From NCBI GenBank assembly GCA_016218825.1, contig JACRCV010000075.1, forward strand, positions 166,358 through 230,357: 64,000 nucleotides of DNA, in the 5' to 3' direction. This DNA is from Deltaproteobacteria bacterium. Its GTDB lineage: Bacteria > Myxococcota > XYA12-FULL-58-9. This document shows, piece by piece, positions 812-63,009 of the stretch. Below the pieces are notes generated by a model. That model was not told where the DNA came from. It saw only the letters and a program-made list of their open reading frames with translations, and did no database searches. Both the position numbers and the translations under genes were made by a program. How positions within the stretch are numbered: position 1 is the first letter of the stretch; each line of letters opens with the position of its first letter.

Positions 812-826
812 GGAGACTAGACCGTC

Positions 827-947
827 TTCAGGTGGACGTGATCCGGCCCCCGCCCCACTCGGGGGCGGGGGATTCAGGGGGTGGGGGTGGGGAGCGACGC
901 CGCATCGGCGGCGCGGGAATCAGATGAAGGCGAAAACGGTCTAGGCG
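827..947. repeat. structured GC-rich repeat, copy G (subfamily 2), flanked by inverted 13-mers ctagaccgtcttc / gaaaacggtctag
   Basis: Contains hairpin ccccgccccactcgggggcgggg and G-tract gggggtgggggtggggag, then gcgggaatca. About 85% similar to copy E at 46499-46600. Confidence 0.5.
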
Positions 948-14017: not shown

Positions 14018-14018
14018 T

Positions 14019-14819: not shown

Positions 14820-14841
14820 AAGAGCGCAGGAGAGATCGGTG

Positions 14842-15960
14842 ATGACGGCGGCCGCCGCGGGCCCGCGGGTGCTCCACGTCATGGCCTCGGGCGAGCGCGG
14901 CGGCGGCGCCGATCACCTCACCCACGTGATCTCCAAGCTCACCGCGCTCGGGGTGCGGTCGAGCGTCGCGGTGAGCGGCGGCGGGCCGCTCGCGGCCCGC
15001 CTCGAGCAGCAGGGGGTCGCGGTGCACCGCGTCGAGATGATGCGGTCCCGCCTGGACCCGCGGGCGGTGCTGGCGCTGCGCCGGTTGGTCGTGGCCGAGG
15101 CGCCCGACGTCGTGCACTGCCACGGCACCCGGGCGGCGTTCTTCGCGGCGCTGGCGCGCTTGCCCGCGGGTTACGTCTACACGGTCCACGGCCTGAGCTA
15201 TCGCCAGGACGTCAGCCGCGCGCGGCGCGCCGTGCTGCTCGCCGCCGAAGCCCTCGCCTGCCGGCGGGCGCGCTTCGTGGTGTCGGTGTCGGCCGCGGAC
15301 CTCAACGACCTGACCCTGAGAGGCTACGTGCCTCCGGGCGCCGGCCGGCACATCCCCAACGCCGTGGCGCTGGATCGCTTCAAGCCTGGGGACCGGCGGC
15401 AGGCGAAGGCGCGGCTCGGCTTGGCAGAGAGCGCGGTCGTGGTCGGGACGGTCGCGCGGTTGGTGCCGCAGAAGGCGGTGCACGACCTCGTCGACGCGGT
15501 GCTGCAGTGCGAGCCCGTGAGCCTGGTGATCGTCGGTGACGGGCCGCTGCGGCGCGGCCTCGAGGCCAGGGCGGCGGCGGCCGGCGCCCGGATCCAGTTC
15601 CTCGGCGCCCGCGACGACGTCGCCGCGGTGCTCCAGGCGTTCGACGTCTTCGCGCTCAGCTCCCGCTGGGAAGGGGAGCCGATCGCGCTCCTCGAGGCGA
15701 TGGCGACCGGGCTCCCGTGCGTCGCGACCGCGACCGCGGGCGCCACCGAGGTGCTCGGCGAGGACGGCGAGGCGGGGCGACTGGTGCCGATCGGCGCCCC
15801 GCGGACCATGGCCGCGACCTTCGCCGAGCTCGCGGCAGACCCGGCGGCGCGCGAACGATTGGGCAAGACGGCGCGGGCCCGGGTCGAGCCGCGCTCCTGG
15901 GAGTCTGTTGCGGCCCAACTCGCTCGGCTCTATAGGGACGTATGCCCAACCGGCCGGTGA
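14842..15960 (+). CDS. family 4 (group 1) glycosyltransferase
   Basis: ATG 14842 with AGGAGAG Shine-Dalgarno. RVLHVMASGERGGG... then C-terminal EGEPIALLEAMATGLPCVAT is a GT4 E-x7-E motif. Confidence 0.85.
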   Translation: MTAAAAGPRVLHVMASGERGGGADHLTHVISKLTALGVRSSVAVSGGGPLAARLEQQGVAVHRVEMMRSRLDPRAVLALRRLVVAEAPDVVHCHGTRAAFFAALARLPAGYVYTVHGLSYRQDVSRARRAVLLAAEALACRRARFVVSVSAADLNDLTLRGYVPPGAGRHIPNAVALDRFKPGDRRQAKARLGLAESAVVVGTVARLVPQKAVHDLVDAVLQCEPVSLVIVGDGPLRRGLEARAAAAGARIQFLGARDDVAAVLQAFDVFALSSRWEGEPIALLEAMATGLPCVATATAGATEVLGEDGEAGRLVPIGAPRTMAATFAELAADPAARERLGKTARARVEPRSWESVAAQLARLYRDVCPTGR

Positions 15961-17588
15961 GCCGCCGTCACACATGGCTCCTCGTCGGGGCCGCGGCGCC
16001 TTTCCTCGTGCCGCTCGCGGTCGGACCGGCGCCGCCCGCCGCGTGGTGTCTCGCGGGCGCGGCCCTGGTCGCTGCGGCGGCGCTGCCGTTCACGCTCGCG
16101 TGGGGGTGGCTCGCGGCGGTCGGTGGCGTCGTCGTCTACCTCGGGGCGGCGGCGTCGGCGTGGTCGTGGGGTGGGGTGGCGGCGGGCGGCGTGGCGCTCC
16201 TCCTGCTGCAGCTCGCCGAGCCGCCGTCGCGGCGCGCGCTCTGGCTGTCGTCCACGGCCGCGGTGGCCGTCGCCATCGGCCTCGGGGTCGCGGTGTTGCA
16301 GCGCTCGAGCCGGCAGGCCGATGCCCTCACCTTGGGACGGTTGAGCTTCGGGCTGGTCCTCGGGGCGGGTTTCTGGCTCGTCGCCACCAAGCTGCAGCGC
16401 GAAACCGGGGGTGCGGCGCGCGCCGCCGCCAAGCGCGGGGTTGCGCTCCTGGTCGCCGTCGCGGCGCTCGTCGGTGGTCTGCGGTCCGAGTCGGACGCGG
16501 CGATCCCGGCGTGGCGCCGACACGCCGCCCGCCTCGCGGCCTTCCCGGCCTCGGCGCCGAGCCTGGCGGCGACGGACCCCCAGGGCGATCTGGAGGCGTT
16601 GCGCGCCGCCGGCTTCGGGGACGCCGGGCTCGCGACCGTGGCGCTGGGGCTGCACGCCAACGCCGATCCCGACAGCCTCAGGCGCTGGTGTCCGCGGCGA
16701 CACGTCGAAAGCGCGCTGCCGCCGGCGTGGGATGGCACGGTGCAGCTCGGCGAGCTGGTGTGCGAGATGCTCGGGCTCTGGCCCGAGGTGGCGGCCGAGC
16801 GTCTGTGGCACGAGAGCCGCTGTGCGCTCGATGGCGCACCGCGTGCCTGTCGATTACGACCCGCGCCGTCGCCGTCGATCCGCGCCGAGCTGCTGCGCCT
16901 GCGGGCGGACGTCTTGGCGGGGGCGGGTCGGATCGAGGCCGCCGCCGCAGCCTATCTGGAAGCCGCCGCCGCCGGCGACCGGTGGGCGCGCCGCGACGGG
17001 GTCCAGGCGATGCTGGAGCGCAACCGCGGGCGGGAGGCCGCGAGCCTCGCGGACGCGAGCGACCCGTTGGCGGCGGTGTGGCTCGGTCGGCCGGTGGATC
17101 CGCCGCGCGCCTGGCAGGCGTGGAACGAGAGCCTCGACTTCGCGCGCGTCGTGGCGCCGCGACGCTCGGGCCTGCAACCGGTCGGGGCGCCCGGCCAGAT
17201 CGTGACCTTCGTCGACCCGGTGTTGGCGCGCCGGGTCGCCACCAGTCTGACGAAGTACGTCCTCGCCTCCGGCATGCAGCTGCCGCCGCCGCCGGCCGGC
17301 GAGATGCCGGCGGTGCTCAAGCTGTGGTTTCGGGCGCGCCGCGGCTTCGCGATCAACCTGGTGACGATCGACGGGCCGATCCTGTCGTACGGCTGCGCCG
17401 ACCCGGGCCCCGAGCCCGGCCACGTCTTCGCGCCGCTGCCGCGCTCGGGGTGCGACGGCGAGTGGACGGTGGCGGCGCTCACGCCTCGGGAGCTGTCGCG
17501 CGCCCGGCTGTCCCGACTGGAGCTGATGGGGGAGTACTCGGTGGCCAGCATCGAGGCTTTGCCGCCGGCGGACGGGGGCGGACCATGA
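15942..17588 (+). CDS. hypothetical polytopic membrane protein with a large C-terminal soluble domain
   Basis: ORF track. Five or six N-terminal TM helices, then ~350 aa with no recognisable domain. ATGA-coupled to the downstream ligase-like gene. Confidence 0.5.
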   Translation: MPNRPVSRRHTWLLVGAAAPFLVPLAVGPAPPAAWCLAGAALVAAAALPFTLAWGWLAAVGGVVVYLGAAASAWSWGGVAAGGVALLLLQLAEPPSRRALWLSSTAAVAVAIGLGVAVLQRSSRQADALTLGRLSFGLVLGAGFWLVATKLQRETGGAARAAAKRGVALLVAVAALVGGLRSESDAAIPAWRRHAARLAAFPASAPSLAATDPQGDLEALRAAGFGDAGLATVALGLHANADPDSLRRWCPRRHVESALPPAWDGTVQLGELVCEMLGLWPEVAAERLWHESRCALDGAPRACRLRPAPSPSIRAELLRLRADVLAGAGRIEAAAAAYLEAAAAGDRWARRDGVQAMLERNRGREAASLADASDPLAAVWLGRPVDPPRAWQAWNESLDFARVVAPRRSGLQPVGAPGQIVTFVDPVLARRVATSLTKYVLASGMQLPPPPAGEMPAVLKLWFRARRGFAINLVTIDGPILSYGCADPGPEPGHVFAPLPRSGCDGEWTVAALTPRELSRARLSRLELMGEYSVASIEALPPADGGGP

Positions 17589-18826
17589 CCCGAGAGCGCA
17601 GCCATGGCGCAGCGCTGGTGCTGCTCGCGGTCGCGGTGCCGATCGGCGAGGGGGTCGGGGTGTTCGCCACCGCGGCCTTGGCATTGGCGACCGTCGCCCG
17701 GCGTCGCGAGCTCGAGCTCGCGCCTTGTGTCGCGGGGGTCGCGGGCCGGACGCTGTTGGCGTTTGGCGTCTGGCTCGCGGCCGGCCTCGTGGCGGTCGCT
17801 CTGGGGCACGAGGGGCTGCATCGCGCCTCGGAGCTCGGGATCCTGGTGCCGCTGTTGGCGCTGCCGTTGGTGCTGATCGCGGTCCGGGCGCTGCCGCCCC
17901 GGTGGCTGGCGCTTGCGACCGCGGCCTTCGTGCTCACGCTCGCCGTCGCCTGCGTCTTCGCGCTGCTGCAGTTCGCCTTCAACGTCCGCCCGGGCGAGTC
18001 GATCGCGCGGGTCGCGTCCACGGTCGCGAGCCAGGGGCGGATCCCCGGCGACTTCGAGCGCACCGCCGCCGGTGGGTTCTACTTCCATCGTTTGAAGATG
18101 GCCCACGTGCTGCTCCTGGGCATCGGCGTCTTGTGGTCGCGGCAGCTCTTCGGGGCGTTGAGCGCGAGGCGGCGGGTCGCGGAGCTGGTGCTCCTCGGCC
18201 TCTACGCCTGCACCCTCATGTTCACCTACACCCGCGGCGCGTTGCTCGCCGCCGCGGTGGCGATGGTCGCGACCTTGGTCTTTGCACCGCGGCGCTACAA
18301 GGTCGCGGGGCTCGGGCTCGCGGTCGTCGCCGGGATCCTGATGCTGAGCATCCCCAGCGTCCGCGGCCGGCTGGCGTCGATCGGCGGCAGCGAGGCCAAG
18401 GCGGTGCGGGCCCTCATCTGGTCGCAGGGGGTTCGGATCATCGCCGACCATCCGCTCGGCGTCGGGCTGTCGAACTACCCCGCGGTGGTCAACCGTTACT
18501 ACGACGCCGAGGACCCCCACTTCGACATCCGCACCTACCCGCACAACATCCTGTTCGCGGCCTGGGCGGAGGCCGGACCGATCGGGCTCGTCGCTTACGC
18601 GATGGCCTGGCTGCAGGTGATCCTCGGCTGCATCGCGGCGCTGTGGCGGCGTGGCGGAGACCGGGCGCTGCGCGTGACGGCGGGGGCGGGGCTGTTCGGA
18701 GTCACGGCGTTGTTCGTCGTGGGCTTGACTCACGACGTGCTCTTCCACAAGCCTGTGGCCCTGGCGTTCAGCTTGCTCGTCGGGGCGACCCTCGCGCGCC
18801 TTGCCACCGAGCCTGAGGAGGGTTGA
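17585..18826 (+). CDS. O-antigen ligase (WaaL/Wzy_C) family membrane protein
   Basis: Internal start MTRERSHGAALVLL... of the long frame 15536..18826. Wzy_C motifs YTRGALLAAAVAMV, HPLGVGLSNY, HNILFAAWAE. Confidence 0.8.
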   Translation: MTRERSHGAALVLLAVAVPIGEGVGVFATAALALATVARRRELELAPCVAGVAGRTLLAFGVWLAAGLVAVALGHEGLHRASELGILVPLLALPLVLIAVRALPPRWLALATAAFVLTLAVACVFALLQFAFNVRPGESIARVASTVASQGRIPGDFERTAAGGFYFHRLKMAHVLLLGIGVLWSRQLFGALSARRRVAELVLLGLYACTLMFTYTRGALLAAAVAMVATLVFAPRRYKVAGLGLAVVAGILMLSIPSVRGRLASIGGSEAKAVRALIWSQGVRIIADHPLGVGLSNYPAVVNRYYDAEDPHFDIRTYPHNILFAAWAEAGPIGLVAYAMAWLQVILGCIAALWRRGGDRALRVTAGAGLFGVTALFVVGLTHDVLFHKPVALAFSLLVGATLARLATEPEEG

Positions 18827-18883
18827 GTCACGTCGAGAGCACGTCCCAGGTCCGCGGCGGGCGAAGCCCGGTCGCACGGGAAG

Positions 18884-20029
18884 GTGGCGTTGGTCCACGA
18901 CTGGCTCGTGGCGCAGCGCGGCGGCGAGCACGTCCTGTTGCAGCTGGCGCGCTTGTTTCCCGAGGCGCCGATCTACACCCTGGTCCACGCCAAGGGGTCG
19001 GCGGACCCCGAGATCGAGGCGCACCCGATCCGCACCAGCTTCATCCAGTCGTTGCCCGGCGTGCCCCACACTTTCCGCCCGTACCTGCCGCTGTTTGCGG
19101 CGGCCATCGAGACCTTCGATCTGAAGGCCTTCGACCTGATCCTCTCTACCAGCCACTGCGTCGCCAAGGGCGTTCGACTCCGAACCGGGCAGGTGCACCT
19201 GGCTTACATCCACACGCCGATGCGCTACCTCTGGGATCAGCTCGCCGAGTACCTGCCCCAGATCCCGGGCCGCCACCTGCTCGAGCCCCCGGTGCGGCTG
19301 TTGACCGCGCCGTTGCGCCACTGGGACGTCACGAGCAGCCGGCGGCCGACGCGCCTCATCGCCAACTCCGAGTTCGTCGCCGGCCGCATCAAGCGCGTGT
19401 GGGGCCGCAACGCCGACGTCGTTTACCCGCCGGTCGACGTCGACTACTTCGCTCGGGCGCGGCGTGTCGCGCGGCGCGGTTTCCTGGTGGTCAGCGCCCT
19501 CGTCGCCTACAAGCGCGTCGACCTCGCGGTGGCCCTCGCCACCCGCAGCCTGCTCGACCTCACCGTGGTCGGCGACGGCCCCGAGCTCCCCCGCCTCCGG
19601 GCGATGGCCGGCCCCACGGTCCGCTTCGTGGGCTCGCTGGGACCGGCGGAGCTGCGGCAGGCGTACGCCGGCGCCCGGGCGCTGTTGTTCTGCGGCGTCG
19701 AAGACTTCGGCATCGTGCCGGTCGAGGCCATGGCCACCGGCTGCCCGGTGATCGCGCTGCAGGAGGGCGGGGCCCTCGAGACCGTCAAGGCCTTCGGCAA
19801 GACCCCGACCGGCGTCTTCTTCCGCGAACCGTCCCTCGCGGCGATTGATGACGCGGTGCGGCGCTTCGAGGTCTTGGAGGCCGAGGGGGCCTTCGCCCGC
19901 GACGTGCTCCTGGCGCACGCGCGTCGCTTCTCCTCCGACCGGTTCGTCGCCGGCTTTACCGCGATCCTCGATCAGTACGCCAGGGGCTCGGCCCCGACCC
20001 CTGAAAAGCCATCGCAGCCGGCCGGCTGA
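18884..20029 (+). CDS. family 4 glycosyltransferase
   Basis: GTG start. MALVHDWLV... and PVEAMATGCPVIALQEGGALETV are GT4 signatures. Confidence 0.85.
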   Translation: MALVHDWLVAQRGGEHVLLQLARLFPEAPIYTLVHAKGSADPEIEAHPIRTSFIQSLPGVPHTFRPYLPLFAAAIETFDLKAFDLILSTSHCVAKGVRLRTGQVHLAYIHTPMRYLWDQLAEYLPQIPGRHLLEPPVRLLTAPLRHWDVTSSRRPTRLIANSEFVAGRIKRVWGRNADVVYPPVDVDYFARARRVARRGFLVVSALVAYKRVDLAVALATRSLLDLTVVGDGPELPRLRAMAGPTVRFVGSLGPAELRQAYAGARALLFCGVEDFGIVPVEAMATGCPVIALQEGGALETVKAFGKTPTGVFFREPSLAAIDDAVRRFEVLEAEGAFARDVLLAHARRFSSDRFVAGFTAILDQYARGSAPTPEKPSQPAG

Positions 20030-20243
20030 TCCGACCGCGCCCGCAAGCTTTTCTCCGCCCCGACATCCGTGTCGCGCTCCCAAGCGCGCCGGGCAAACGA
20101 CCGTGCCACCGCCGGCCAACCGTGCCGCAGCACGCACCGAGAACCGGTCGAGAAAGACGCCTGAACGCCATGATAACCGTCATGTTTTCCGGCGCCACCT
20201 ATCAACGTTGCCGCAAACGTGCTACAGGCAGCCGTCCTTCGCG

Positions 20244-20266
20244 GCTGGGGCGTGTTTTTTGCACTT
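20244..20266 (+). promoter_or_regulatory. weak sigma54-like -24/-12 element (ctgGGgCgtgttttTTGCAc)
   Basis: GG at 20248-49 and GC at 20261-62 give the canonical 12-bp offset, with TTGCA at -12. It lies in the ~260-bp lower-GC gap before the priming transferase gene. The consensus match is only partial. Confidence 0.2.
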
Positions 20267-20289
20267 CGGCCGCGGGGGCGCTGATAAAG

Positions 20290-21690
20290 ATGTTGAGAAG
20301 GCACCACAGGTTCTTCCAATCGCTGCAGGTGTTGCGCGACGCCGTCCTCGTGGGCGTGAGCTTCTACCTCGCGTATCTCGGGCGGTTCTCGTTCCCGGGG
20401 CTGTTGCCGTTCGGCACCGTGACGCCGCGGCAGGAGGCCATCTGGGTCGGCTTGATGCTGATGATGGTGTGGCCGGCGATGGGTTGGATGGCCGGGCTGT
20501 ACGTGAGCCGGCGGTCGCGGGGGGTCGCGGCGGAGTTCTTCGACGTCTCGCGGACGTCGTTCATCGCGTTCATGGTGCTCGTGACGTTGGCCTACTTCAG
20601 CCGCGACGAGCGCTTTTCGCGCGGCATCCTGGTCTTGTGGGCGCTGTTGTCGGTGCTCGTCGTCGGGCTGGCTCGGGTGGCGAGCCGGGTGGCGCTGGGG
20701 TCGGTGCGCTCCCGGGGTTACAACCTCCGGCACGTGATCATCGTCGGCACCGGGGACCTGGCGCGGCGGGTCGCGAGCCTGATCCGGCAGCAAGGGTCGT
20801 TGGGGATGCGGGCGGTCGGCGTGGTGGCGCCGAACACCGAGCGCGCCAAGACCAAGATCGGAAACCTCCCTGTTTTTGGAAAGGTCAGCGACTTGCACCG
20901 CATCCTCGCCGAGCACGCGGTGGACCAGGTGATCGTGGCGCTGCCGATCGACAAGCTCGGGGCGTTGAAGGAGATCATGACCGTCTTGTCGCAGGAGCCG
21001 GTCGACGTGCGGGTGATCCCCGACTTCTACCAGTACATGACGCTGTGCGGCAGCGTCGAAGAGTTCGCCGGGCTGCCGATCATCAACCTGCAGGCGACGC
21101 CCCTCGTCGGCTGGAACCTGGTCGCGAAGCGGACCTTCGACATCGTGGTGACCGGCATCGGCCTGGTGTTGGTGACGCCGCTCGTCACGCTCACCGCGCT
21201 GTTCATCAAGCTCACGAGCCCCGGGCCGGTGTTCTACGTCCAGGAGCGGGTCGGGATGGACGGCCGCAAGTTCCAGATGTTCAAGCTCCGCACCATGCGG
21301 GTCAACGCCGAGGCCGACGGCGTGCAGATGACGAGCCCCGACGACCCGCGCCGCACCCGGCTCGGCTCGCTGTTGCGCCGCCTGTCGATCGACGAGCTGC
21401 CGCAGCTCTGGAACGTGATGAAGGGCGACATGAGCCTGGTGGGGCCGCGGCCGGAGCGCCCGTGCTTCATCGAGACCTTCAAGCGCGACATTCCGCGCTA
21501 CGCGTTGCGGCACAAGATCAAGGCCGGGATGACGGGTTGGGCGCAGGTGCACGGGATGCGCGGCGACACCAGCATCGCGAAGCGCATCGAGCTCGATCTG
21601 TACTACATCGAGAACTGGTCGCTGCTCCTCGACTTGCGCATCCTGTTCCGCACCGTGTTTGGAGGCTTCTTGTCCCCGAACGCCTACTAG
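20290..21690 (+). CDS. undecaprenyl-phosphate sugar phosphotransferase (WcaJ/EpsZ-like polyprenyl glycosylphosphotransferase)
   Basis: ATG 20290 after the lower-GC intergenic region. C-terminal bacterial sugar transferase domain (FDIVVTGIGLVLVTPL...GPVFYVQERVGMDGRKFQMFKLRTM...DELPQLWNVMKGDMSLVGPRP). Confidence 0.85.
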   Translation: MLRRHHRFFQSLQVLRDAVLVGVSFYLAYLGRFSFPGLLPFGTVTPRQEAIWVGLMLMMVWPAMGWMAGLYVSRRSRGVAAEFFDVSRTSFIAFMVLVTLAYFSRDERFSRGILVLWALLSVLVVGLARVASRVALGSVRSRGYNLRHVIIVGTGDLARRVASLIRQQGSLGMRAVGVVAPNTERAKTKIGNLPVFGKVSDLHRILAEHAVDQVIVALPIDKLGALKEIMTVLSQEPVDVRVIPDFYQYMTLCGSVEEFAGLPIINLQATPLVGWNLVAKRTFDIVVTGIGLVLVTPLVTLTALFIKLTSPGPVFYVQERVGMDGRKFQMFKLRTMRVNAEADGVQMTSPDDPRRTRLGSLLRRLSIDELPQLWNVMKGDMSLVGPRPERPCFIETFKRDIPRYALRHKIKAGMTGWAQVHGMRGDTSIAKRIELDLYYIENWSLLLDLRILFRTVFGGFLSPNAY

Positions 21691-21799
21691 CGCTCGGGGT
21701 CTTTTGAAATTGGCGTCGCGGTTCGAATTTGCTAGGTTCCCGACACCCTTCGGCGCCGTGGCCCGCGGGGAAGGACACACTCATCAAGGTGGAGCTTCG

Positions 21800-22918
21800 A
21801 TGTCAGCACCCGTCCCATTCTTGGATCTTCCGCAACAACACCGGCCGCTGCTCAACGAGCTGAACCAGGTCATCGGCGGCCTCATCGCCGAGGGCAAGTT
21901 CATCGGCGGCGCCCCGGTCGCCGAGTTCGAGAAGGCGTTCGCCAAGTTCGTCGGCAGCGCGCACGCGGTCGGGGTCGCGAACGGCACCGACGCCCTGATG
22001 CTGGCGCTCCGGGTGCTCGGGGTCTCGAGGGGCGACGTGGTCATCGTCCCGGCGCACACCTTCATCGCCACCGCCGAGGCGGTCAGCATGGTGGGCGCGA
22101 CGCCGCGCTTCGTCGACATCGATCCGATCACCTACACCCTCGATCCGAAGGCCCTCGCCGCGGTCGACAAGACCGGGGTCAAGGCGGTGATGCCGGTGCA
22201 CCTCTACGGGCAGCCGGCGGACATGGCCCCGATCCTCGCCACCGCGAAGCAGCACGGCTGGCACGTGGTCGAGGACTGCGCCCAGTCGCACGGCGCGACC
22301 TACCAGGGCAAGGTCACCGGCTCGTTCGGGGTGCTCGCCGGGTTCTCGTTCTATCCCGGCAAGAACCTCGGCGCCTTCGGCGACGGCGGCGCGGTCACCG
22401 GCTCCGACGACGCCCGCATCGATCACCTGCGGCGGGTGGCCGATCACGGCCGGCAGACCAAGCAGCTGCACGGCGAGCCGGGCGTCAACTCGCGTTTGGA
22501 CGCCATCCAGGCGGCGGCGCTGACCATCAAGCTCAAGCACCTCGCGGCGTGGAACAAAGAGCGCGCGGTCGCCGCCGGCTGGTACGAGGCCCGCCTCAAG
22601 GACGTCAAGGGCGTCGTGACGCCGAAGGTCGGCGCCCTGCGGTCCCACATCTACCACATCTACGCCCTCCAGGTGCCGGAGCGCGATCGCTTCCTCGAGC
22701 ACGCTGCCGCGCAGGGCGTCGGCTGCGGCGTGCACTACGCGGTGCCCTTGCACCTGCAGCCGGCGTACAAGGCGCTCGGCCACAAGCAGGGCGACTTCAA
22801 GGTGGCGGAGCAGGTGACCGCGCGTTGCGTCAGCCTGCCGATGTTCCCCGGGATCACCGAGGCGCAGGTGGACCAGGTCGTGAAGGTCGTCAAAGAACAC
22901 GTGAAGGCCGGGAGCTAA
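21800..22918 (+). CDS. DegT/DnrJ/EryC1/StrS-family sugar aminotransferase (PLP-dependent)
   Basis: ATG 21800 with AAGGTGGAG Shine-Dalgarno. ...GTDALMLAL...VIVPAHTFIATAEAV... and FYPGKNLGAFGDGGAVT are family signatures. Confidence 0.9.
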   Translation: MSAPVPFLDLPQQHRPLLNELNQVIGGLIAEGKFIGGAPVAEFEKAFAKFVGSAHAVGVANGTDALMLALRVLGVSRGDVVIVPAHTFIATAEAVSMVGATPRFVDIDPITYTLDPKALAAVDKTGVKAVMPVHLYGQPADMAPILATAKQHGWHVVEDCAQSHGATYQGKVTGSFGVLAGFSFYPGKNLGAFGDGGAVTGSDDARIDHLRRVADHGRQTKQLHGEPGVNSRLDAIQAAALTIKLKHLAAWNKERAVAAGWYEARLKDVKGVVTPKVGALRSHIYHIYALQVPERDRFLEHAAAQGVGCGVHYAVPLHLQPAYKALGHKQGDFKVAEQVTARCVSLPMFPGITEAQVDQVVKVVKEHVKAGS

Positions 22919-22922
22919 AGAC

Positions 22923-23924
22923 ATGCCGCGCATCGCCGTCGTCGGGGCGGGCTACTGGGGCCCCAACCTCGTCCGCAATTTCCAGGGCCACAAAGACTGC
23001 ACCGAGCTGTGGGTCTGCGACCAGTCCAAGGCCCGCCTCGATCAGATGCGCACCCGCTTCCCGGGGCTGAAGTACACCGAGAGCTATGACGAGGTGCTGA
23101 AGTCCAACGTCGACGGCGTGGTGTTGGCGACGCCGGTGTCGACGCACTACGAGCTGGCGCGCCGGGCGCTGGAGCGCGGCAAGCACGTGTTCGTCGAGAA
23201 GCCGCTGGCGTCGTCGGCGGAGCACGCCAAAGATCTGGTGAGCCGCGCCGAGGCGGCGAAGCGCACCCTGATGGTCGGCCACACCTTCCTCTACAGCCCG
23301 CCGGTCTTGAAGGTGAAGGATCTGATCGCCAAGGGCGAGCTCGGCCGGATCTTCTTCGTCACCACGATGCGGGTGAACCTCGGGCTGCACCAGAAGGACG
23401 TCTCGGTCATCTGGGACCTGGCGCCGCACGACTTCTCGATCCTGTTCTATTGGCTGGGCGAGCGGCCGTCGGTCATCACCGCGACCGGCAAGGCGTTCGT
23501 GGTCTCCGGGATCCACGACGTGGCCTTCATCTCCGCCGAGTTCCCGTCGGGGACCATCGCCCACCTCGAGGTCAGCTGGCTGGCGCCGTCGAAGCTGCGG
23601 CGCACCGCGATCGTCGGCGACAAGAAGATGGCGGTCTACGACGACACCGAGGCGATCGAGAAGGTGAAGATCTTCGACCGCGGCGTCGACTTCAAGGACC
23701 CGGAGACCTTCGGCGAGTTCCAGCTGTCGTACCGCACCGGCGACATCTGGAGCCCGAAGCTCGCGCAGTCGGAGCCGCTGGCGCTCGAGGCCGGCGACTT
23801 CCTGAAGGCGATCAGCGACGGCACCACCCCGAAGAGCGACGGCCTGATGGGTCTGCGGGTCGTGGAGGCGCTGGCGGCGGCGCAAAAGAGCCTGGAGCAG
23901 GGCGGGGTGCCGATCAAGCTGTGA
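22923..23924 (+). CDS. Gfo/Idh/MocA-family NAD-dependent sugar oxidoreductase (WbpB/GnnA-like)
   Basis: MPRIAVVGAGYWGPNLVRNF... is a Rossmann N-terminus, followed by EKPLASS. Confidence 0.9.
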   Translation: MPRIAVVGAGYWGPNLVRNFQGHKDCTELWVCDQSKARLDQMRTRFPGLKYTESYDEVLKSNVDGVVLATPVSTHYELARRALERGKHVFVEKPLASSAEHAKDLVSRAEAAKRTLMVGHTFLYSPPVLKVKDLIAKGELGRIFFVTTMRVNLGLHQKDVSVIWDLAPHDFSILFYWLGERPSVITATGKAFVVSGIHDVAFISAEFPSGTIAHLEVSWLAPSKLRRTAIVGDKKMAVYDDTEAIEKVKIFDRGVDFKDPETFGEFQLSYRTGDIWSPKLAQSEPLALEAGDFLKAISDGTTPKSDGLMGLRVVEALAAAQKSLEQGGVPIKL

Positions 23925-23927
23925 CCC

Positions 23928-25385
23928 ATGATGGAGCGCGGCGACTACGAGCAGAAGCTCTGGCTCTTCGTTCTCGACATGGTCGCGTTCTTCGTGGCGC
24001 TGAACGGCGCCATCTACCTGCGCTACGGCTCGCTGTTGCCCTTTGCCAAGGGCGGCCCCGCTCCCTGGGAGCGGATCTTCGTGGCGTTTCCGTTCGTCGC
24101 CCTCGTCTGGCTGGTCGCCGGGGCGATGTTCGGCAGCTATCGGGCGCGGCAGAGCGCCTTCGAGGAGGTGGCGGCGGTGGTGCGCGCCACCTTGGTGGCG
24201 TTCCTCGCGGTCCTGAGCGTGACCTTCTTCTACCGCGGCTTCTCGTACTCCCGCGGCATGATCGGCTTTCTGATCCCGCTCGTGCTCCTGACCGTGATCG
24301 GCGGTCGGCTCCTGTTTCGCGCGGTGCGGCGGCGGGTGCTGCGGCGCTTCGGTGGGCGGCCGCGGGTCGCCATCCTCGGCAGGAGCAAGATCGGCAATAG
24401 CCTCTTGAAGGCGTTGTTGCGGGAGCGCGACTACTACGACGTCGTCGGGGTGGTGGCGACGACCGGGGTCTCCCCGATCACCCCGGACGCCGACGCCGAG
24501 GCGGCGGCGGAGCTGCCGCTGTTGGGCCACGTGCGCGACATCGAGGAGCTGTGCCGGAGCCAGAAGTTCGAGGCCCTGGTGCTCGTCGAGCGTCACCTGC
24601 CGGAGGACGTGGTGCTCGACTCGATCGAGGCCTGCCTGCGGCACCAGGTGAGCTGGAACATGATCCCGGCGGTGCACGAGCTGTTGCTCGATCGGGCCCG
24701 GGTCGATCTGGTGGACGGTATTCCGCTGGTCGGGATGCGGCGCAGCAACATCGTCGGCTTCAACTGGGCGGTCAAGCGCCTGTTCGACATCGCCCTGTCG
24801 CTGGCCTTGATCCTGCTGGCGTCGCCGCTGATGGCGGTGGTAGCACTCGCCATCAAGCTCAGCTCCAAGGGCCCGATCTTCTACGTACAACAGCGGATCG
24901 GCTACCACGGCCGGGCGTTCCCGTTCTACAAGTTCCGCTCGATGCACCGGAACAACGACGACGCCATCCACCGCGAGTACACCCGCAAGTGGATCATCGA
25001 GAACAAGGCGCACACCGAGGCCGGGGTGCGCAAGGTCCACAAGATCACCGACGATCCGCGGGTGTTCAAGGTCGGCAGGTTCATCCGCAAGTACTCCATC
25101 GACGAGCTGCCGCAGCTGTTCAACGTCCTCGGCGGCGAGATGAGCCTGATCGGGCCGCGGCCGGCGCTGCCCTACGAGGTCGAGGTCTATCGCGAGTGGC
25201 ATCGGCGGCGCTTCGAGGCGCCGCCGGGGATCACCGGGCTGTGGCAGGTGTCGGGGCGCAACCAGGTGTCGTTCGAGGAGATGGTGAAGCTCGACATCGA
25301 CTACCTCGAGAACTGGTCGCTGCTCTTGGACCTGCGCATCCTGGTGCGGACGGTGCGCGTCGTGCTCTTCGAGCACGCCTACTGA
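23928..25385 (+). CDS. second polyprenyl-phosphate sugar phosphotransferase (WbaP/PglC-like)
   Basis: Same C-terminal transferase domain as 20290 (KRLFDIALSLALILLASPLM...GPIFYVQQRIGYHGRAFPFYKFRSM...DELPQLFNVLGGEMSLIGPRP). Confidence 0.85.
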   Translation: MMERGDYEQKLWLFVLDMVAFFVALNGAIYLRYGSLLPFAKGGPAPWERIFVAFPFVALVWLVAGAMFGSYRARQSAFEEVAAVVRATLVAFLAVLSVTFFYRGFSYSRGMIGFLIPLVLLTVIGGRLLFRAVRRRVLRRFGGRPRVAILGRSKIGNSLLKALLRERDYYDVVGVVATTGVSPITPDADAEAAAELPLLGHVRDIEELCRSQKFEALVLVERHLPEDVVLDSIEACLRHQVSWNMIPAVHELLLDRARVDLVDGIPLVGMRRSNIVGFNWAVKRLFDIALSLALILLASPLMAVVALAIKLSSKGPIFYVQQRIGYHGRAFPFYKFRSMHRNNDDAIHREYTRKWIIENKAHTEAGVRKVHKITDDPRVFKVGRFIRKYSIDELPQLFNVLGGEMSLIGPRPALPYEVEVYREWHRRRFEAPPGITGLWQVSGRNQVSFEEMVKLDIDYLENWSLLLDLRILVRTVRVVLFEHAY

Positions 25386-31542: not shown

Positions 31543-32058
31543 TCAGAAGACGTAGCTGCCGAAGGCGACGATCTCGACCATCCCGAGGAACGCCGGTCGC
31601 TGGCCCATCGTCGTGCTCAGGTCGACGCCCACCTGGCCACCCACCGAGAGCTTCGCGGTCAAGAAATAGTCGGCGCCGGCGCCGAGATAGGCGCCGAGCG
31701 TCGTGAGGTTGGCGCCGATGACGTCCCAGATCCGACCGAACGACAGCTGCGCCTGCGCGAACGGCGACACCGGCAGGTCGAGGTCCGCGAGACGGTAGCG
31801 AGCGCCGGCACGCAGGCGCAGCGGCACGCTGCCGGAGACGCCGAGGTTCAGCCCCGCGACCGCCGAGAGCGACTTGTCGAACGCGTACTCGCCCTGCGCG
31901 TTTACCAACAGGTAGGCGCCGGACGCGCCCAACGCGGAGCCCAGCCGGAAGCCGGGGCCCAACGCGGCGCTGCCGATGATCGATCCGGGCTCGACCGTAA
32001 GACCCCACGCCGTGGTCGGTACCAACAGGAGTGCTACTGCTAGGAACCGAGCGCGCAT
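31543..32058 (-). CDS. small outer-membrane beta-barrel protein (paralog of 26146..26646)
   Basis: Signal MRARFLAVALLLVPTTAWG, alternating hydrophobic pattern, and C-terminal ...AFGSYVF. GGAGGG Shine-Dalgarno. 15 bp upstream of dus on the same strand. Confidence 0.6.
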   Translation of the reverse strand: MRARFLAVALLLVPTTAWGLTVEPGSIIGSAALGPGFRLGSALGASGAYLLVNAQGEYAFDKSLSAVAGLNLGVSGSVPLRLRAGARYRLADLDLPVSPFAQAQLSFGRIWDVIGANLTTLGAYLGAGADYFLTAKLSVGGQVGVDLSTTMGQRPAFLGMVEIVAFGSYVF

Positions 32059-32124
32059 CGAGCTACCCTCCGGACAGTGTGGCTTGAGGCGTAACATGGT
32101 CTATTCAACAGGTCAAACGGGCAC

Positions 32125-32290
32125 CGGCCACGACACCGGGCAATCGATTTCTCGCGTTCTTGATTCCCGGCGGGCGCTTCGCGCCCGTCCTCCCCACCCC
32201 CACCCCGGAGCGTCGCCTTCGGCGCCGCTCTCGGCCCGCCCCAGATTGGGGCGGGCAACATCGGCAAAGCCCGAGAGCTCGATCGCCCTG
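32125..32290. repeat. structured GC-rich repeat, copy B (subfamily 1, inverted relative to copy A), flanked by 9-bp direct repeat GGCCACGAC (32116-32124 and 32291-32299)
   Basis: The reverse complement is ~90% identical to copy A over ~150 bp, including terminus cagggcgatcgag, the hairpin, G-tract and cccgccgggaatca. Seen directly. Confidence 0.7.
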
Positions 32291-32311
32291 GGCCACGACG
32301 TCCTCCGCCGC

Positions 32312-40296: not shown

Positions 40297-40818
40297 CTAT
40301 TTGCCCCAGTCCAGCGCCAAACCGATGCGTCCATGCAGGGTCGCGTAGGCTGGAGCTTGTAACAGGTCTGTACCGAACAGCGGGTAGTACCGCATGACGA
40401 CCCCCCAAAGCAACCAGTCAAAATGGACGACCTCGAAGCCGGCGCCGACGACGCTGACCGTCGACGTCGCCGGCACCCCGTGGCGGTTCACCGAGACGCT
40501 GACGTTGGCGACGCCGAGCTCGAGGGTCGGCGCGATCCGAAAGTCGTCGAGGCGATAGCAGAGGGTTGCGCCGAGGACGTCCACCGCCACCCCGGGCTTT
40601 CGGGTGGGGAAGGTCTGGCGATTGCCGAAGACCGTGGCCCGCAGCTGCTCGCCGAGACCCAGCTCCGCCTGGAGCCCGCCGCCGTAGCCGAAGGCGCGCC
40701 GCTCGAAGGGCGGCGCGAGGCCGCTGACCCCGGGCTCGATCGCGAGCTGCAATGAGCCGAGACCGGCGGCGTGCGCCGGGCTGAGGTGCGACGAGCCCAA
40801 GACGACCGTCACGAGCAA
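40297..40818 (-). CDS. small outer-membrane beta-barrel protein (third paralog); start uncertain
   Basis: The C-terminal 160 aa of ORF 40297..41427 resemble the other two small OMPs (signal ...LLLVTVVLGSSHLSPAHA). No ATG is in frame; only TTG 40818 or GTG 40812. Repeat copy C abuts the 5' end. Confidence 0.4.
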   Translation of the reverse strand: MLVTVVLGSSHLSPAHAAGLGSLQLAIEPGVSGLAPPFERRAFGYGGGLQAELGLGEQLRATVFGNRQTFPTRKPGVAVDVLGATLCYRLDDFRIAPTLELGVANVSVSVNRHGVPATSTVSVVGAGFEVVHFDWLLWGVVMRYYPLFGTDLLQAPAYATLHGRIGLALDWGK

Positions 40819-40837
40819 CAGCGGACGCGAAGTGCGT

Positions 40838-41036
40838 CGATGTTGCCCGCCCCACCCGGTCGGGCACCGAGCAGCTGGCTTTGCCCGTGCGAGGTGCGGG
40901 GGCACGGGGGGACGCAGAGCCGGCGCGTCACTCCGTTGTCGCCCTCGGACCACGTGCCGGCGGGCGGTCCCCCCGCCAGGTTGCTGGGGCGCCAAGCGCC
41001 CGCCGGGAATCAAAGAAGCGAGAACCAGTCGATTGC
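40838..41036. repeat. structured GC-rich repeat, copy C (subfamily 1 variant with longer, divergent centre)
   Basis: Shares 5' cgatgttgcccgccccacccgg and 3' gcgcccgccgggaatcaaagaagcgagaaccagtcgattgc with copy A. Confidence 0.55.
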
Positions 41037-41116
41037 TCTGACGCAAAGTGCGATGGAGTATAGCAATCCGCGCCTCTTCGCGGTAAGAGGCCGGATCCGA
41101 AAATCGTTTCCAGGAG

Positions 41117-46083: not shown

Positions 46084-46497
46084 ATGTCGAAGCGTCGGAT
46101 CTGTGTGGTGAGTGCCGCCTTGGTGCGTGAGGGACGCTACCTCATCACGCAGCGCCTCGAGAAGGCGGTGCTGCCGTTGTTGTGGGAGTTCCCGGGCGGC
46201 AAGGTCGAGGAAGGCGAGAGCGACGAGGTGGCGTTGAAGCGCGAGCTCAAGGAGCGCCTCGGCATCGACGCGGTGGTGAAGAAGCGCATCGCCTCCACCG
46301 AGCGGGAGTATCGCGACTACGTCGTCGAGATGCACCTGTACTCGTGCGACCTCGGGCCGGTGGAGCCGCGCAAGGTCAACGTCCGCGATCTGAAGTGGGT
46401 CAACTCCAAGGAGTTCGGCCGCTACGAGTTCACGCCCGCCGACCAGGGCTCGATGGACGCGCTGCTGTTCGGCGACAAGAAGACCGCGAAGCGTTAG
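46084..46497 (+). CDS. NUDIX hydrolase (MutT-like)
   Basis: Nudix box GGKVEEGESDEVALKRELKERLGI. GAGGAGGGGG Shine-Dalgarno. Confidence 0.85.
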   Translation: MSKRRICVVSAALVREGRYLITQRLEKAVLPLLWEFPGGKVEEGESDEVALKRELKERLGIDAVVKKRIASTEREYRDYVVEMHLYSCDLGPVEPRKVNVRDLKWVNSKEFGRYEFTPADQGSMDALLFGDKKTAKR

Positions 46498-46498
46498 G

Positions 46499-46600
46499 CC
46501 GCATGCATCACTTGATTCCCGCGCGGCCGCTGCGCCCGCGCTCCCCACCCCCACCCCCATCCCCCGCCCCCGGGTGGGGCGGGGGCGACGAACGCTGGAT
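46499..46600. repeat. structured GC-rich repeat, copy E (subfamily 2), flanked by perfect 14-bp direct repeat CGCGAAGCGTTAGG (46485-46498 and 46601-46614)
   Basis: Seen directly. The duplicated 14-mer contains the stop codons of both convergent flanking genes. Confidence 0.65.
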
Positions 46601-46609
46601 CGCGAAGCG

Positions 46610-47434
46610 TTAGGCGCGCTTCAAGATCCAGTCGGCGATCTCGGCGTGGAGCTTCACGCGCCCGGTCTCGTTCAGGATCTCGTGCATCTCGCCGTCGCGC
46701 CGCCACACGGTCTTGTCGGGCGATTGGATCCGCTCGGCGAAGGCGGCGTTGGCCGCCATTGACACCACGCGGTCGCGCTCGGCGTAGGCGAACAACAACG
46801 GTTGCTCGACGCGGTCGCGGGCGGCGAGGCGCGCCCACGCGGTCTGCACCGCCTTGAACCAGCCGGCGGACGCGGTGGTGAACACCAGCGGGTCGCTGCG
46901 ATAGGCCTCGACGATGCTCCGGTCGTGGGTCAGGTCGTTCGGGTCGATGCCCGAGGGCAGCGTCATCGTCGGCAACAACGCGCCCAGGATCCGGCCGGCG
47001 AGGATCTTCGCCTTCGGCACCGAGGCCGGCAGACCCAACATCGGGCTGGTGATGACGAGACCCGCCCAGGGTGTCTTCTTGCTCGAGACGTAGTCGAGCG
47101 CCACCAGACCGCCGGCGGAGTGCCCGAGCAGGAAGCGCTTCTGGCCCTGGACCAGGGTGAGCGCCGCGTCGACGTCGAGGTGGTACTCCTCGAAGCGCTT
47201 GACGTAGCCGCGCCGGCCGCTCGAGGTGCCGTGGCCGCGCAGATCGACCGCCACCACGGCGATGCCCTTGGCGCAGAAGGCTTCGGCGAGCTCCCGGTAG
47301 CGTCCCGAGTGCTCGGCGTAGCCGTGCAGCACCAGGACCTCGGCCGTGGCGGCGGCCGGGGGCGCAAAGCGCTGGGCGAACAGGGCGGCGCCGTCTGCGG
47401 CGCGTAACGTCGTCTCGGTGTGCGACATGGTCAT
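46610..47434 (-). CDS. alpha/beta-hydrolase (lysophospholipase/monoacylglycerol-lipase-like)
   Basis: Internal start MTMSHTETT... of ORF 46610..47809. HGYAEHSGRY and GHSAGG (GxSxG nucleophile). Confidence 0.8.
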   Translation of the reverse strand: MTMSHTETTLRAADGAALFAQRFAPPAAATAEVLVLHGYAEHSGRYRELAEAFCAKGIAVVAVDLRGHGTSSGRRGYVKRFEEYHLDVDAALTLVQGQKRFLLGHSAGGLVALDYVSSKKTPWAGLVITSPMLGLPASVPKAKILAGRILGALLPTMTLPSGIDPNDLTHDRSIVEAYRSDPLVFTTASAGWFKAVQTAWARLAARDRVEQPLLFAYAERDRVVSMAANAAFAERIQSPDKTVWRRDGEMHEILNETGRVKLHAEIADWILKRA

Positions 47435-55502: not shown

Positions 55503-55508
55503 CGGCGG

Positions 55509-55552
55509 CGGGGCGGGCAACATCGGTCCAACTCGAGAGCTCGATCGCCTTG
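55509..55552. repeat. repeat fragment, copy D (44-bp 5'-terminal piece of subfamily 1, inverted; possible internally deleted element 55487-55552)
   Basis: The reverse complement caaggcgatcgagctctcgagttggaccgatgttgcccgcccc matches the first 44 bp of copy A with one mismatch. Confidence 0.6.
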
Positions 55553-61323: not shown

Positions 61324-61368
61324 CGCCGATTGACCTGCAAACCCCGCGGGTGAGATAAGGCGCGTCAG

Positions 61369-63009
61369 ATGAAGCTCACCCCCTGGTCAAGGCGATCGAG
61401 TTCTCGAGTTGGACCGATGTTGCCCGCCCCACCCGGGGGCGGGCCGAGAGCGGCGCCGCAGGCGACGCTCCGGGGTGGGGGTGGGGAGGACGGGCGCGAA
61501 GCGCCCGCCGGGAATCAAAGAAGCGAGAGCGCGATTGCCCTGACCCCCTGGTGCCGGCTCCTTGCCATCGTTGCGCTGTCGATCGGCGGCTGTGCCCGCG
61601 AGCTCCCGGGCGACACGCCGCCGGGCAAGGCGTTCTACTACCCGGTCAGCGTCACGGTGGCGCCGAACGGCCTCCATGCCTACGTCGTCAGCTCGAACTT
61701 CGACCTGCACTACAGCTCGGGCTGGGTCTCGGTCGTGAGCCTCGAGAGCCTCTTGGACGGCTTGCCCATCGAGACCACGGTGGTCTCCGAGGCGAAGGTG
61801 CTGTCGCTCGCGGGCGGGCTGAGCCTGTCGCGAAGCGGCACGATGGCGGTCACCGCGCACCGCGGCGCCGCGGCGCTGTCGCTGCTCGAGATCGGTGACG
61901 ACGGCAAGACGATCGGCTGCGGCGTCCAGGGCGACACCACGGATCTCAGCTACAAGGAGCGGCTCACCGACTGCGATCGCGCCCACATGCTGCAGACCGC
62001 GTGCACCGCGCCGCAGCTCGAGGACGCCGATCGGCCCGCCGGCTGTCCCTGGGAGCAAGACGGCGGACGTCGGGTGTTCGGGACGTCGCTCAACGATCTC
62101 GAGCTCGCCGACCCGTTCGCGACCGCGATCTTCGAGGTGCCGGCGGCGAGCGGCGGCACCGAGCCGTTGCTCGCGGTTTCCCACTTGACCAGTGGCGACC
62201 CGTCCGTCGGCCAGACCAACCAGCTGCTGCTCTTCGACGTCGAGTCCGGCACGACGGCGGGCGAGTCGGTCGTCTTGGCGCCGCGGCACGCGGTGCGGCT
62301 GGGAGGTGGCGGCAACCTGGGTGTCGCCGCGCTCGCGGTGCGCTCCGACGCTGCCGGCACGTTCCTCGCCGCTGCCACCCAAAAGGCCTTCACCGGCGAG
62401 TCGCAGGATCCGAGCGCGGTCTACGTCGTCGACGTGACCAGGACGCTTTCCGACCAGCAGGACCGGGTGTCATCCCATTCAATCAATGCCGAGGTCGGCG
62501 GTGTGAACCTGGCCGGGATCACCTTCGCCGCGAACAACCCCGACCTGGCGTTCGTGACCAACCGTATTCCCGACAGCGTCGTGACCTTGGACACGTCGAT
62601 CGAGACCGTCGACGAGCGCGACTCGCTCGGGACCGTGACGGTCGCGCGTCGGCCGCGCTTCGCGGTGCTCTCGGCGCAGGCCTTGCAGCCGCGTCCGGCG
62701 GGGCTGCTCTACGTCACCCGGGCGGCGGGGGAGGATCTGCTGGCGGTCGCGAGCTTCGCCGACAACGTGGTCTACCTGTTCTCGGTGCATGGGAGCGAGC
62801 TGCGCCCGACCGGGCGCCTGCCGGTGCCGGGGTACGGCCCGTTCGCTCTCGCGCACGTCGCCCGCGACGGCAGCGACTTCCTGCTGGTGACGACGTTCTT
62901 CACCCATGCGCTGGTGGTCTTCGACGTCACCGGCGACGACGCCGCGCGGTTCCGGTACGTGACCGAGCTCCGGTCGGGCGTGCCGCCGGCCGGCGATCCG
63001 GCGCGGTAG
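61369..63009 (+). CDS. YVTN-type beta-propeller lipoprotein whose signal-peptide coding region carries an in-frame repeat insertion
   Basis: ORF track. Codons 1-6 read MKLTPW. The 152-bp element plus duplication (165 bp, in frame) follows, then ...LTPWCRLLAIVALSIGGC lipobox. Downstream are YVTN-like 40-residue repeats. Confidence 0.6.
   Translation: MKLTPWSRRSSSRVGPMLPAPPGGGPRAAPQATLRGGGGEDGREAPAGNQRSESAIALTPWCRLLAIVALSIGGCARELPGDTPPGKAFYYPVSVTVAPNGLHAYVVSSNFDLHYSSGWVSVVSLESLLDGLPIETTVVSEAKVLSLAGGLSLSRSGTMAVTAHRGAAALSLLEIGDDGKTIGCGVQGDTTDLSYKERLTDCDRAHMLQTACTAPQLEDADRPAGCPWEQDGGRRVFGTSLNDLELADPFATAIFEVPAASGGTEPLLAVSHLTSGDPSVGQTNQLLLFDVESGTTAGESVVLAPRHAVRLGGGGNLGVAALAVRSDAAGTFLAAATQKAFTGESQDPSAVYVVDVTRTLSDQQDRVSSHSINAEVGGVNLAGITFAANNPDLAFVTNRIPDSVVTLDTSIETVDERDSLGTVTVARRPRFAVLSAQALQPRPAGLLYVTRAAGEDLLAVASFADNVVYLFSVHGSELRPTGRLPVPGYGPFALAHVARDGSDFLLVTTFFTHALVVFDVTGDDAARFRYVTELRSGVPPAGDPAR
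61388..61539. repeat. structured GC-rich repeat, copy A (subfamily 1, reference copy), flanked by 13-bp direct repeats ctCaccccctggt (61375-61387) and ctGaccccctggt (61540-61552)
   Basis: Termini caaggcgatcgag ... gcgcgattgcc form imperfect terminal inverted repeats (GGCRATCG). Hairpin gcccgcccc-acccg-ggggcgggc. G-tract ggggtgggggtggggagg at 61473-61490. Confidence 0.75.

Follow-up and report, generated by a model that had tools for sequence, protein, structure and literature searches.

In-frame insertions of transposable elements of the miniature inverted-repeat kind (MITEs) into open reading frames (ORFs) have been documented for the Rickettsia palindromic elements (RPEs) and for the ERIC, BOX, QMITE1 and Anabaena elements, with the RPEs as the extreme case (PMC10969869). 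According to the summary of Ogata et al. (2000) given there, RPEs are palindromic repeats of about 150 bp that lie in-frame within genes, adding a peptide to the product while the ORF is preserved (PMC10969869). Here, a comparable event is described in a stretch of 64,000 nucleotides (hereafter, the window) from the Deltaproteobacteria bacterium assembly GCA_016218825.1 (contig JACRCV010000075.1, positions 166,358 to 230,357 of the forward strand), where a 155-bp repeat, copy A (61388..61542, plus strand), interrupts the signal-peptide coding sequence of a lipoprotein gene (61369..63009, plus strand). Reconstruction of the empty site, comparison with orthologous genes and alignment with further copies of the repeat showed that a non-autonomous MITE-type repeat has inserted itself by transposition in that part of a conserved lipoprotein gene which encodes the n-region of the signal peptide. 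As an explanation of the locus as a whole, we consider it probable, though by no means assured, that this insertion into the lipoprotein leader is tolerated.

The first indication of an insertion was given by two 13-mers, ctcaccccctggt (61375-61387) and ctgaccccctggt (61540-61552), which follow the ATG at 61369, are identical at 12 of 13 positions and have 152 nt between them; direct reading of the sequence reproduced all of these coordinates as first reported. This was the sole site among 63,822 window positions at which 13-mers spaced 165 nt apart matched at 12 or more of 13 positions, and the background rate for 13-mer matches over spacings of 100-300 nt was about 1.4e-5 per position pair. 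As had also been reported, the ORF crosses the insert without a stop codon, the block gained amounting to 165 nt or 55 codons, so that the product has 546 amino acids as found and 491 once the insert is subtracted. Deletion of the element together with one duplicate yielded MKLTPWCRLLAIVALSIGGCARELPG, encoding the leader MKLTPWCRLLAIVALSIGGC with its cysteine at residue 20. In a bacterial signal peptidase II (SPII) leader, a positively charged n-region is followed by 7-22 residues of hydrophobic core and by a lipobox that ends in cysteine, all within about 15-35 residues of the start, and the reconstructed leader fits this description. In the gene as found, the core and lipobox are intact, but the cysteine lies at residue 75.

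The preliminary description had interpreted the 13-mers as a target-site duplication around a 152-bp element. A flanking duplication is indeed present, but both lengths had to be revised following alignment of copy A with copy B, a second full-length copy (32136..32290, minus strand), and copy C, a variant (approximately 40810..41045, plus strand). In each of copies A, B and C, ...GATTGCY is followed by the three bases C[T/G]G, which form the inverted complement of the CA[A/G] at the 5' end. As this triplet belongs to the inverted repeat and is shared by all three copies, a 155-bp element with a 10-bp duplication appears more likely than 152 bp with 13. Defined in this way, the duplication ACCCCCTGGT occupies 61378..61387 on the left and 61543..61552 on the right (both plus strand; 10/10 match), and the insertion point follows the first base of codon 7 of the lipoprotein gene. 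The longer 13-mer would then comprise the 10-bp duplication, the terminal CTG of the element and the chance CT of the host codon CTC. A 13-bp duplication that was later mutated was rejected, the three extra bases being shared by copies A, B and C and completing the inverted repeat. Neither the 165-nt arithmetic nor the reconstructed empty site is affected by the redefinition.

The ends of copy A are formed by the terminal inverted repeats CAAGGCGATCGAGTTCTCG (61388..61406, plus strand; 14/19 match to the right end) and CAGGGCAATCGCGCTCTCG (61524..61542, minus strand, with the sequence given on that strand). Either end of copies A and B carries CAGGGCRATCG..TCTCG as part of imperfect inverted repeats of about 19 bp (14-15/19) that reach the extreme ends of the element, and the 16-nt pattern GGCRATCGNNNTCTCG was found mismatch-free only at element ends in the whole window. 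Copy A folds from end to end into a long hairpin, with a predicted free energy of -89.6 kcal/mol for the sense RNA (z = -5.1) and of -52.1 kcal/mol for the DNA including the duplications (z = -3.0), and a G-quadruplex motif, GGGGTGGGGGTGGGGAGGACGGG (61472..61494, plus strand, i.e., sense), is located in its conserved, GC-rich core. A search of Rfam 15 found nothing on the element at E <= 1, and only one tRNA in the whole window at the gathering score. The insert is non-coding DNA by origin, as seen from a GC content that is flat over the three codon positions (0.71/0.76/0.71, versus 0.69/0.51/0.92 in the host gene) and from the fact that five of the six element reading frames are open, with low-complexity translations in all frames. 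Given a 165-nt block and five open frames out of six, insertion into any gene would keep the frame and in most cases leave the ORF open; read-through of the insert is therefore expected and is not a special property of this site.

That copy A is a repeat, as the preliminary description had proposed, was confirmed by the full-length copy B, the variant copy C and a fragment, copy D. Copy B is 89% identical to copy A and intergenic, lying between a divergent OMP beta-barrel gene (31543-32097, minus strand) and a CCA-adding/poly(A) polymerase-family gene (plus strand), and is flanked by a duplication of its own, CGTCGTGGCC (32291-32300) and TGTCGTGGCC (32126-32135), matching at 9/10 positions. 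Copy C, for which the left boundary is approximate, is situated in the divergent intergenic region between an RNase E/G gene (minus strand) and a TPR gene (plus strand); it has the 5' (CGATGTTGCCCGCCCCACCCGG) and 3' (GCGCCCGCCGGGAATCAAAGAAGCGAGAA...GATTGCTCTG) modules of copy A with a longer, unrelated interior of about 128 nt of GC-rich sequence. Copy D (55507..55552, minus strand) is a 46-nt intergenic 5' fragment with 96% identity to copy A. No target-site duplication was visible at copies C and D. Outside the window, a further copy was found at the peptide level in a MutL protein (P0006, MBI5509213.1) encoded on a different contig, and the closeness of this accession to that of the lipoprotein (MBI5510127.1) suggests that both belong to the same submission. 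Residues 374-423 (approximately) of MutL read ...GGPMLPAPPGGGPRAAPQATLRGGGGEDGREAPAGNQKGENSIALG..., translated from the same element frame as in the lipoprotein. The MutL insert is placed in the inter-domain linker, after the end of PF01119 (DNA_mis_repair) at residue 339 and before the start of PF08676 (MutL_C) at residue 432. Judged by their positions, the two intragenic copies that have survived occupy places in which the addition of a flexible segment should be largely harmless.

Irrespective of its parent insertion sequence, the element is a MITE by structural definition, having a length of 155 bp without a transposase gene, terminal inverted repeats, target duplications (10/10 at copy A, 9/10 at copy B) and multiple copies (in 64 kb two full copies, one variant and one fragment, plus the mutL copy elsewhere). 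Mobilisation of such a MITE in trans fits the inverted-repeat ends, the 10-bp duplication at two independent copies, the small size and the multiplicity of copies. It resembles the bacterial MITEs (ERIC/IRU, Correia, BOX, QMITE1 and Anabaena), which are likewise small, non-coding, multi-copy repeats with inverted repeats, a duplication and a long hairpin, mostly intergenic but with occasional in-frame intragenic copies. It differs from them in that its core (hairpin, G-quadruplex motif, hairpin, GGGAATCA) is better kept than its ends and is shared with a shorter type of repeat. REP-type elements are short extragenic palindromes that are not known to carry a target duplication. Although the GC-rich hairpin modules in mosaic arrangement and the mostly intergenic location recall the RAYT-mobilised REP/BIME/REPIN elements, the 10-bp duplications, the inverted-repeat ends of about 19 bp and the intragenic copies place the present family outside that group.

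The closest parallel in behaviour is provided by the RPEs, as two copies lie in-frame within genes, in the same element frame (lipoprotein signal peptide and MutL linker), and the ORF is preserved in both. However, the host is an uncultured, high-GC (71%) Deltaproteobacteria/Myxococcota-like organism and not Rickettsia, two known intragenic copies compare with dozens, and the present repeat is bounded by clear inverted repeats and flanked by a 10-bp target duplication. The element works like an RPE, but we do not class it as one; homology is very unlikely considering that the host is a high-GC deltaproteobacterial metagenome-assembled genome.

A protein search with the lipoprotein, which has no Pfam match, returned its own NCBI record (P0001, MBI5510127.1, 530 amino acids, 100% identity) and four orthologues (P0002-P0005) with 41-56% identity, one of which is named YncE-family protein. 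The orthologue alignments span 86-89% of the query, the two closest proteins finish with a similar ...PAR, and ORF reading and the protein search agree that the host lipoprotein is otherwise whole over its full length. All four orthologues have a lipoprotein signal peptide of 16-20 residues immediately ahead of a conserved C-A-R-x-L-P-G, and the 55-residue block is present in none. Their N-termini are MNRLILTRCVAFGAILVAAC (P0002, 55% identity, lipobox cysteine at residue 20), MKPSWSCRALCVAALFSVDC (P0003, 56%, residue 20), MIRRLALVLLAGALGC (P0004, 41%, residue 16) and MTCHRIALTATLLGFGVGC (P0005, 41%, residue 19), compared with residue 20 in the window protein after removal of the insert, whose reconstructed MKLTPWCRLL... 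is similar to the MKPSWSCRAL... of P0003. These four short leaders, together with the reconstruction, uphold the proposal that removal of the element restores a lipoprotein signal peptide. Orthologues carrying the same 55-codon extension had been named as the observation that would speak against an insertion; the insert peptide is absent from all four and, when 1.84 billion representative proteins were searched exhaustively with HMMER, was found in no other carrier than the MutL of the same genome.

The gene order is conserved as well, a patatin-like phospholipase gene followed, after a short gap, by the lipoprotein gene being common to three of the four orthologous loci. The distance from the patatin stop codon to the ATG at 61369 is 45 bp in the window, and the gap to the preceding gene is 48, 52 and 33 bp at three orthologous loci. 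In one of the loci (L163) the upstream gene is cut and domain-less on record; in another (L165) a different upstream gene is found, the 748-aa product of which has no Pfam match on record. A promoter-like signal was identified at 61330..61359 (plus strand), consisting of TTGACC (61330-35), an 18-nt spacer and GATAAG (61354-59), and ending 9 nt before the ATG. Neither ATTGACCT nor GATAA varies between the window and the three orthologous loci for which DNA was available (L163, L164 and L165), and both keep the same distance to the ATG, the conserved arrangement being ATTGACCT-N17/18-GATAA-N~10-ATG. Since this motif is invariant at a fixed spacing, the ATG at 61369 (61369..61371, plus strand) corresponds to the orthologous start codon, and it was assigned as the ancestral start on the basis of the intergenic distance and the conserved upstream motif. 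ATTGACCT...GATAA (61330-61368 in the window, 441-479 in L163) is thus preserved across genomes whose proteins are only 41-56% identical, including L165 with its different upstream gene. Plausibly, the TTGACC-N18-GATAAG signal is a conserved promoter giving rise to a leaderless or near-leaderless mRNA. A simple scan around the site for sigma-70 promoters and terminators identified no promoter and one weak terminator-like site on the minus strand.

The element brings start codons of its own. The preliminary description had named a CTG at about 61540 as the only in-frame alternative, which proved incorrect, an ATG at 61417 (61417..61419, plus strand) and an ATT at 61534 also being in frame. The former is the start used by NCBI for the 530-aa product, so that P0001 begins MLPAPPGGG... 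and has its lipobox cysteine at residue 59 in its own numbering, equivalent to 75 from the ATG at 61369. In this record (MBI5510127.1) the repeat-supplied ATG is given as the start, the ancestral first 16 codons are lost and the product is listed as hypothetical protein. The repeat has therefore misled automatic start-codon calling in the public annotation.

Whether the interrupted gene still functions depends on what the extension does to the leader, and the preliminary description had expected export to be crippled. This appears doubtful from the arrangement of the leader, as the insert lies upstream of an intact arginine, hydrophobic core and lipobox, and is itself non-hydrophobic and net positive. 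The remainder of the signal peptide, C-R-LLAIVALSIGG-C (61552..61593, plus strand), comprises the arginine, the hydrophobic core and the lipobox cysteine (codon 75, 61591-93), and mean Kyte-Doolittle hydropathy reaches 1.8-2.3 in this stretch only. The first 63 residues of the leader contain 9 K+R and 4 D+E (net +5), 19 G+P and no hydrophobic segment. As the block measures 165 nt and the frame that was hit is one of the five open frames of the element, the gene stays open and gains 55 Gly/Pro/Arg/Ser-rich residues between M-K-L-T-P-W and C-R-LLAIVALSIGG-C. The proposed course of events is that translation would start either at the ancestral ATG at 61369, with the promoter-like signal 9 nt upstream, or at the ATG at 61417 within the element. 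The non-hydrophobic, net +5 extension would be predicted to remain cytoplasmic in keeping with the positive-inside rule, the unchanged arginine, hydrophobic core and lipobox would still engage Sec, Lgt and LspA, and SPII cleavage before the lipobox cysteine would discard the entire insert and leave the mature protein unaltered. The cost would probably be a reduced efficiency of expression or export, and not a loss of function, given the strong mRNA hairpin and the G-quadruplex motif that start 19 nt into the ORF. If the element were excised precisely, through slippage from one 10-bp repeat to the other across the hairpin, the ancestral gene would be exactly restored.

Long Sec signal sequences that carry N-terminal extensions and still function are known (PMC2805444). 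In autotransporters and two-partner secretion proteins, the extended signal peptide likewise has a Sec-type core after an extension of tens of residues (PMC2805444); those extensions, however, are conserved, evolved domains, whereas here a recent accident of non-coding DNA would have been added to an SPII lipoprotein leader. A Tat signal was also considered and rejected, as the S-R-R-S-S-S of the element lacks the F-L-K part and is 50 residues away from the hydrophobic core.

Several observations weigh against a tolerated MITE insertion and temper the confidence placed in it. A lipoprotein signal peptide of 74 residues is far longer than usual, a very recent knock-out would likewise present as an intact gene, and the nearest orthologue, at 56% identity, is too distant to date the insertion or to gauge selection. 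The core of copies A and B (positions 28-131) is 96% identical compared with 71-74% for the inverted-repeat ends, which is the reverse of what simple maintenance by a transposase would predict. No transposase domain, RAYT or matching insertion sequence was detected in the approximately 30 ORFs of the window that were tested, all of them ordinary chromosomal genes, and a search of the window for additional matches to the inverted repeats found none. Finally, all of the evidence comes from one metagenome-assembled genome.

The strongest competing explanation accepts the same insertion but holds that the gene has been inactivated or left strongly hypomorphic, the inserted block or the hairpin and G-quadruplex motif stopping export or translation, with the ORF still intact because the event was recent. 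A leader of 75 residues against 16-20 in the orthologues would agree with this, as would an mRNA structure of -89.6 kcal/mol beginning 19 nt after the ATG along with a sense-strand G-quadruplex motif, the displacement of Lys2 by 55 residues from the hydrophobic core, and a 10/10 target duplication consistent with a young insertion. However, the insertion has left the core-adjacent arginine and the lipobox as they were, the added residues are non-hydrophobic with a net positive charge, no secondary disabling mutations were seen across 1.4 kb, and the in-frame copy in the mutL linker fits a pattern in which insertions survive only at permissive sites. On balance, inactivation is considered rather unlikely, though it deserves to be taken seriously.

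Toleration of the insert within the translated leader also has to be set against its being largely or wholly bypassed at translation, with initiation at ATG 61417, ATT 61534 or CTG 61540 and the element serving as a new 5' leader. The in-frame ATG at 61417 is the NCBI start, and initiation at ATT 61534 or CTG 61540 would give a near-normal leader of 20-22 residues, MALTPWCRLLAIVALSIGGC. However, no Shine-Dalgarno-like sequence is suitably spaced before any of the three codons, all of which fall within the long hairpin predicted for the element, initiation at ATT or CTG is rare, and the promoter-like signal would put the start of transcription at or just before the ATG at 61369. Bypass is accordingly regarded as improbable.

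A different proposal concerns the repeat itself, namely that its conserved core (GC hairpin, G-quadruplex motif, GC hairpin, GGGAATCA) is a selected functional module that has been spread by more than one carrier. The points cited in its favour are the 96% identity of the core against 71-74% at the ends, the identity of the MutL peptide and the sharing of the core with a second repeat type, which has different ends and a 17-bp flanking duplication. In the MutL copy, the same core-conserved pattern was observed at the peptide level, with a core identical to that of copy A. That copies A and B agree better in the core than at the ends, the reverse of the usual MITE pattern, hints that the core has been selected or homogenised, or that sub-families have recombined. 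A translatable, harmless peptide may itself have been selected, as proposed for RPEs, considering that both intragenic copies are in the same frame. We treat a selected core as speculative, with only a small chance of being correct. The least credible explanation, a repeat copy misplaced into the gene by assembly or binning, could draw on the presence of several repeat copies in a short-read metagenome-assembled genome and on the NCBI protein being derived from the same assembly and hence not independent, but it is dismissed as extremely improbable, as both flanks are collinear with orthologous loci, a mis-join would not make a perfect 10-bp host duplication at the exact inverted-repeat ends, and the 18 differences between copies A and B show that copy A is not a collapsed copy.

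The second repeat type is represented twice in the window. At 46499..46597 (minus strand), a short-type repeat with the hairpin, G-quadruplex, hairpin-GGGAATCA core, and without inverted-repeat ends, lies between the convergent genes for a NUDIX protein (ending at 46497) and an alpha/beta-hydrolase (ending at 46610; region 46482-46614). On either side of it stands a copy of a 17-nt direct repeat, CCTAACGCTTCGCG[A/G]TC (16/17), that contains both overlapping stop codons. From this arrangement, it seems that an insertion with a 17-bp duplication, compared with 10 bp in the 155-bp family, split two genes with overlapping stops and left both intact. The other, at 817..944, has inverted-repeat ends of its own (CTAGACCGTCTTC.../...GAAAACGGTCTAG), unlike those of the 155-bp family. 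Only 5 nt separate its start from the ATG (811, minus strand) of a lipoprotein-like ORF, MVYVLMLRRTLLSASMAWWIAGC..., that follows it downstream, and a plus-strand ATG at 980 lies about 35 nt downstream of it on the other side. The repeat may have displaced the ribosome-binding region that served the lipoprotein-like gene on the minus strand. Four of the nine canonical G-quadruplex motifs in this 71% GC window fall within the repeat family (861-892, 32184-32206, 46543-46571 and 61472-61494), always on the same element strand. Furthermore, the GAATC (GANTC) site in GGGAATCA is kept wherever the 3' part of the core is retained, namely in copies A, B and C and in both short-type repeats. A candidate IHF site at AATCAA was rejected, only half of the consensus being present.

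Beyond this genome, searches for the family gave negative results. In GTDB contigs (one genome per species), the 18-mer GCGCCCGCCGGGAATCAA was found at 42 loci, all of them single chance matches with similarity extending over no more than about 20 nt. A two-anchor gapped pattern gave 0 matches in the JGI and ENA metagenome contigs, and the exact 16-mer CGATGTTGCCCGCCCC was found there at no fewer than 120 loci, none of which, among the matches listed, was similar past the seed, making this a soft negative that depends on an exact seed. Translations of the other four open frames, after removal of R-runs, were compared with public proteins, and no carrier was found among 3103 candidates scored. 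So far, these comparisons indicate a family known from a single metagenome-assembled genome only.

Elsewhere in the window, a polysaccharide-biosynthesis cluster was recognised at 13845-25385, with GT2 and GT4 glycosyltransferases, a DegT-type aminotransferase, a GFO/IDH/MocA oxidoreductase and two paralogous Bac_transf sugar transferases. Stretches of DNA from the latter two are 76-82% identical (21385-21657 versus 25095-25355).

As a new MITE family showing a known phenomenon, the element leaves the current understanding of MITEs unchanged and its importance is modest. For public databases, there is an annotation consequence, as the repeat-supplied ATG conceals where the gene truly starts and that its product is a lipoprotein. 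Were the core to prove a selected module, it would be either a site of protein binding or a module that is structured as DNA or RNA, and the signal-peptide copy could be a reversible expression switch, re-activated by precise excision. As a MITE insertion that is probably tolerated, the locus shows that palindromic repeats inserted in-frame in the RPE-like manner also occur in an uncultured, free-living deltaproteobacterial lineage of high GC content, and offers a natural experiment on the N-terminal extension that a lipoprotein signal peptide can bear, in which the ancestral state is exactly reconstructible.

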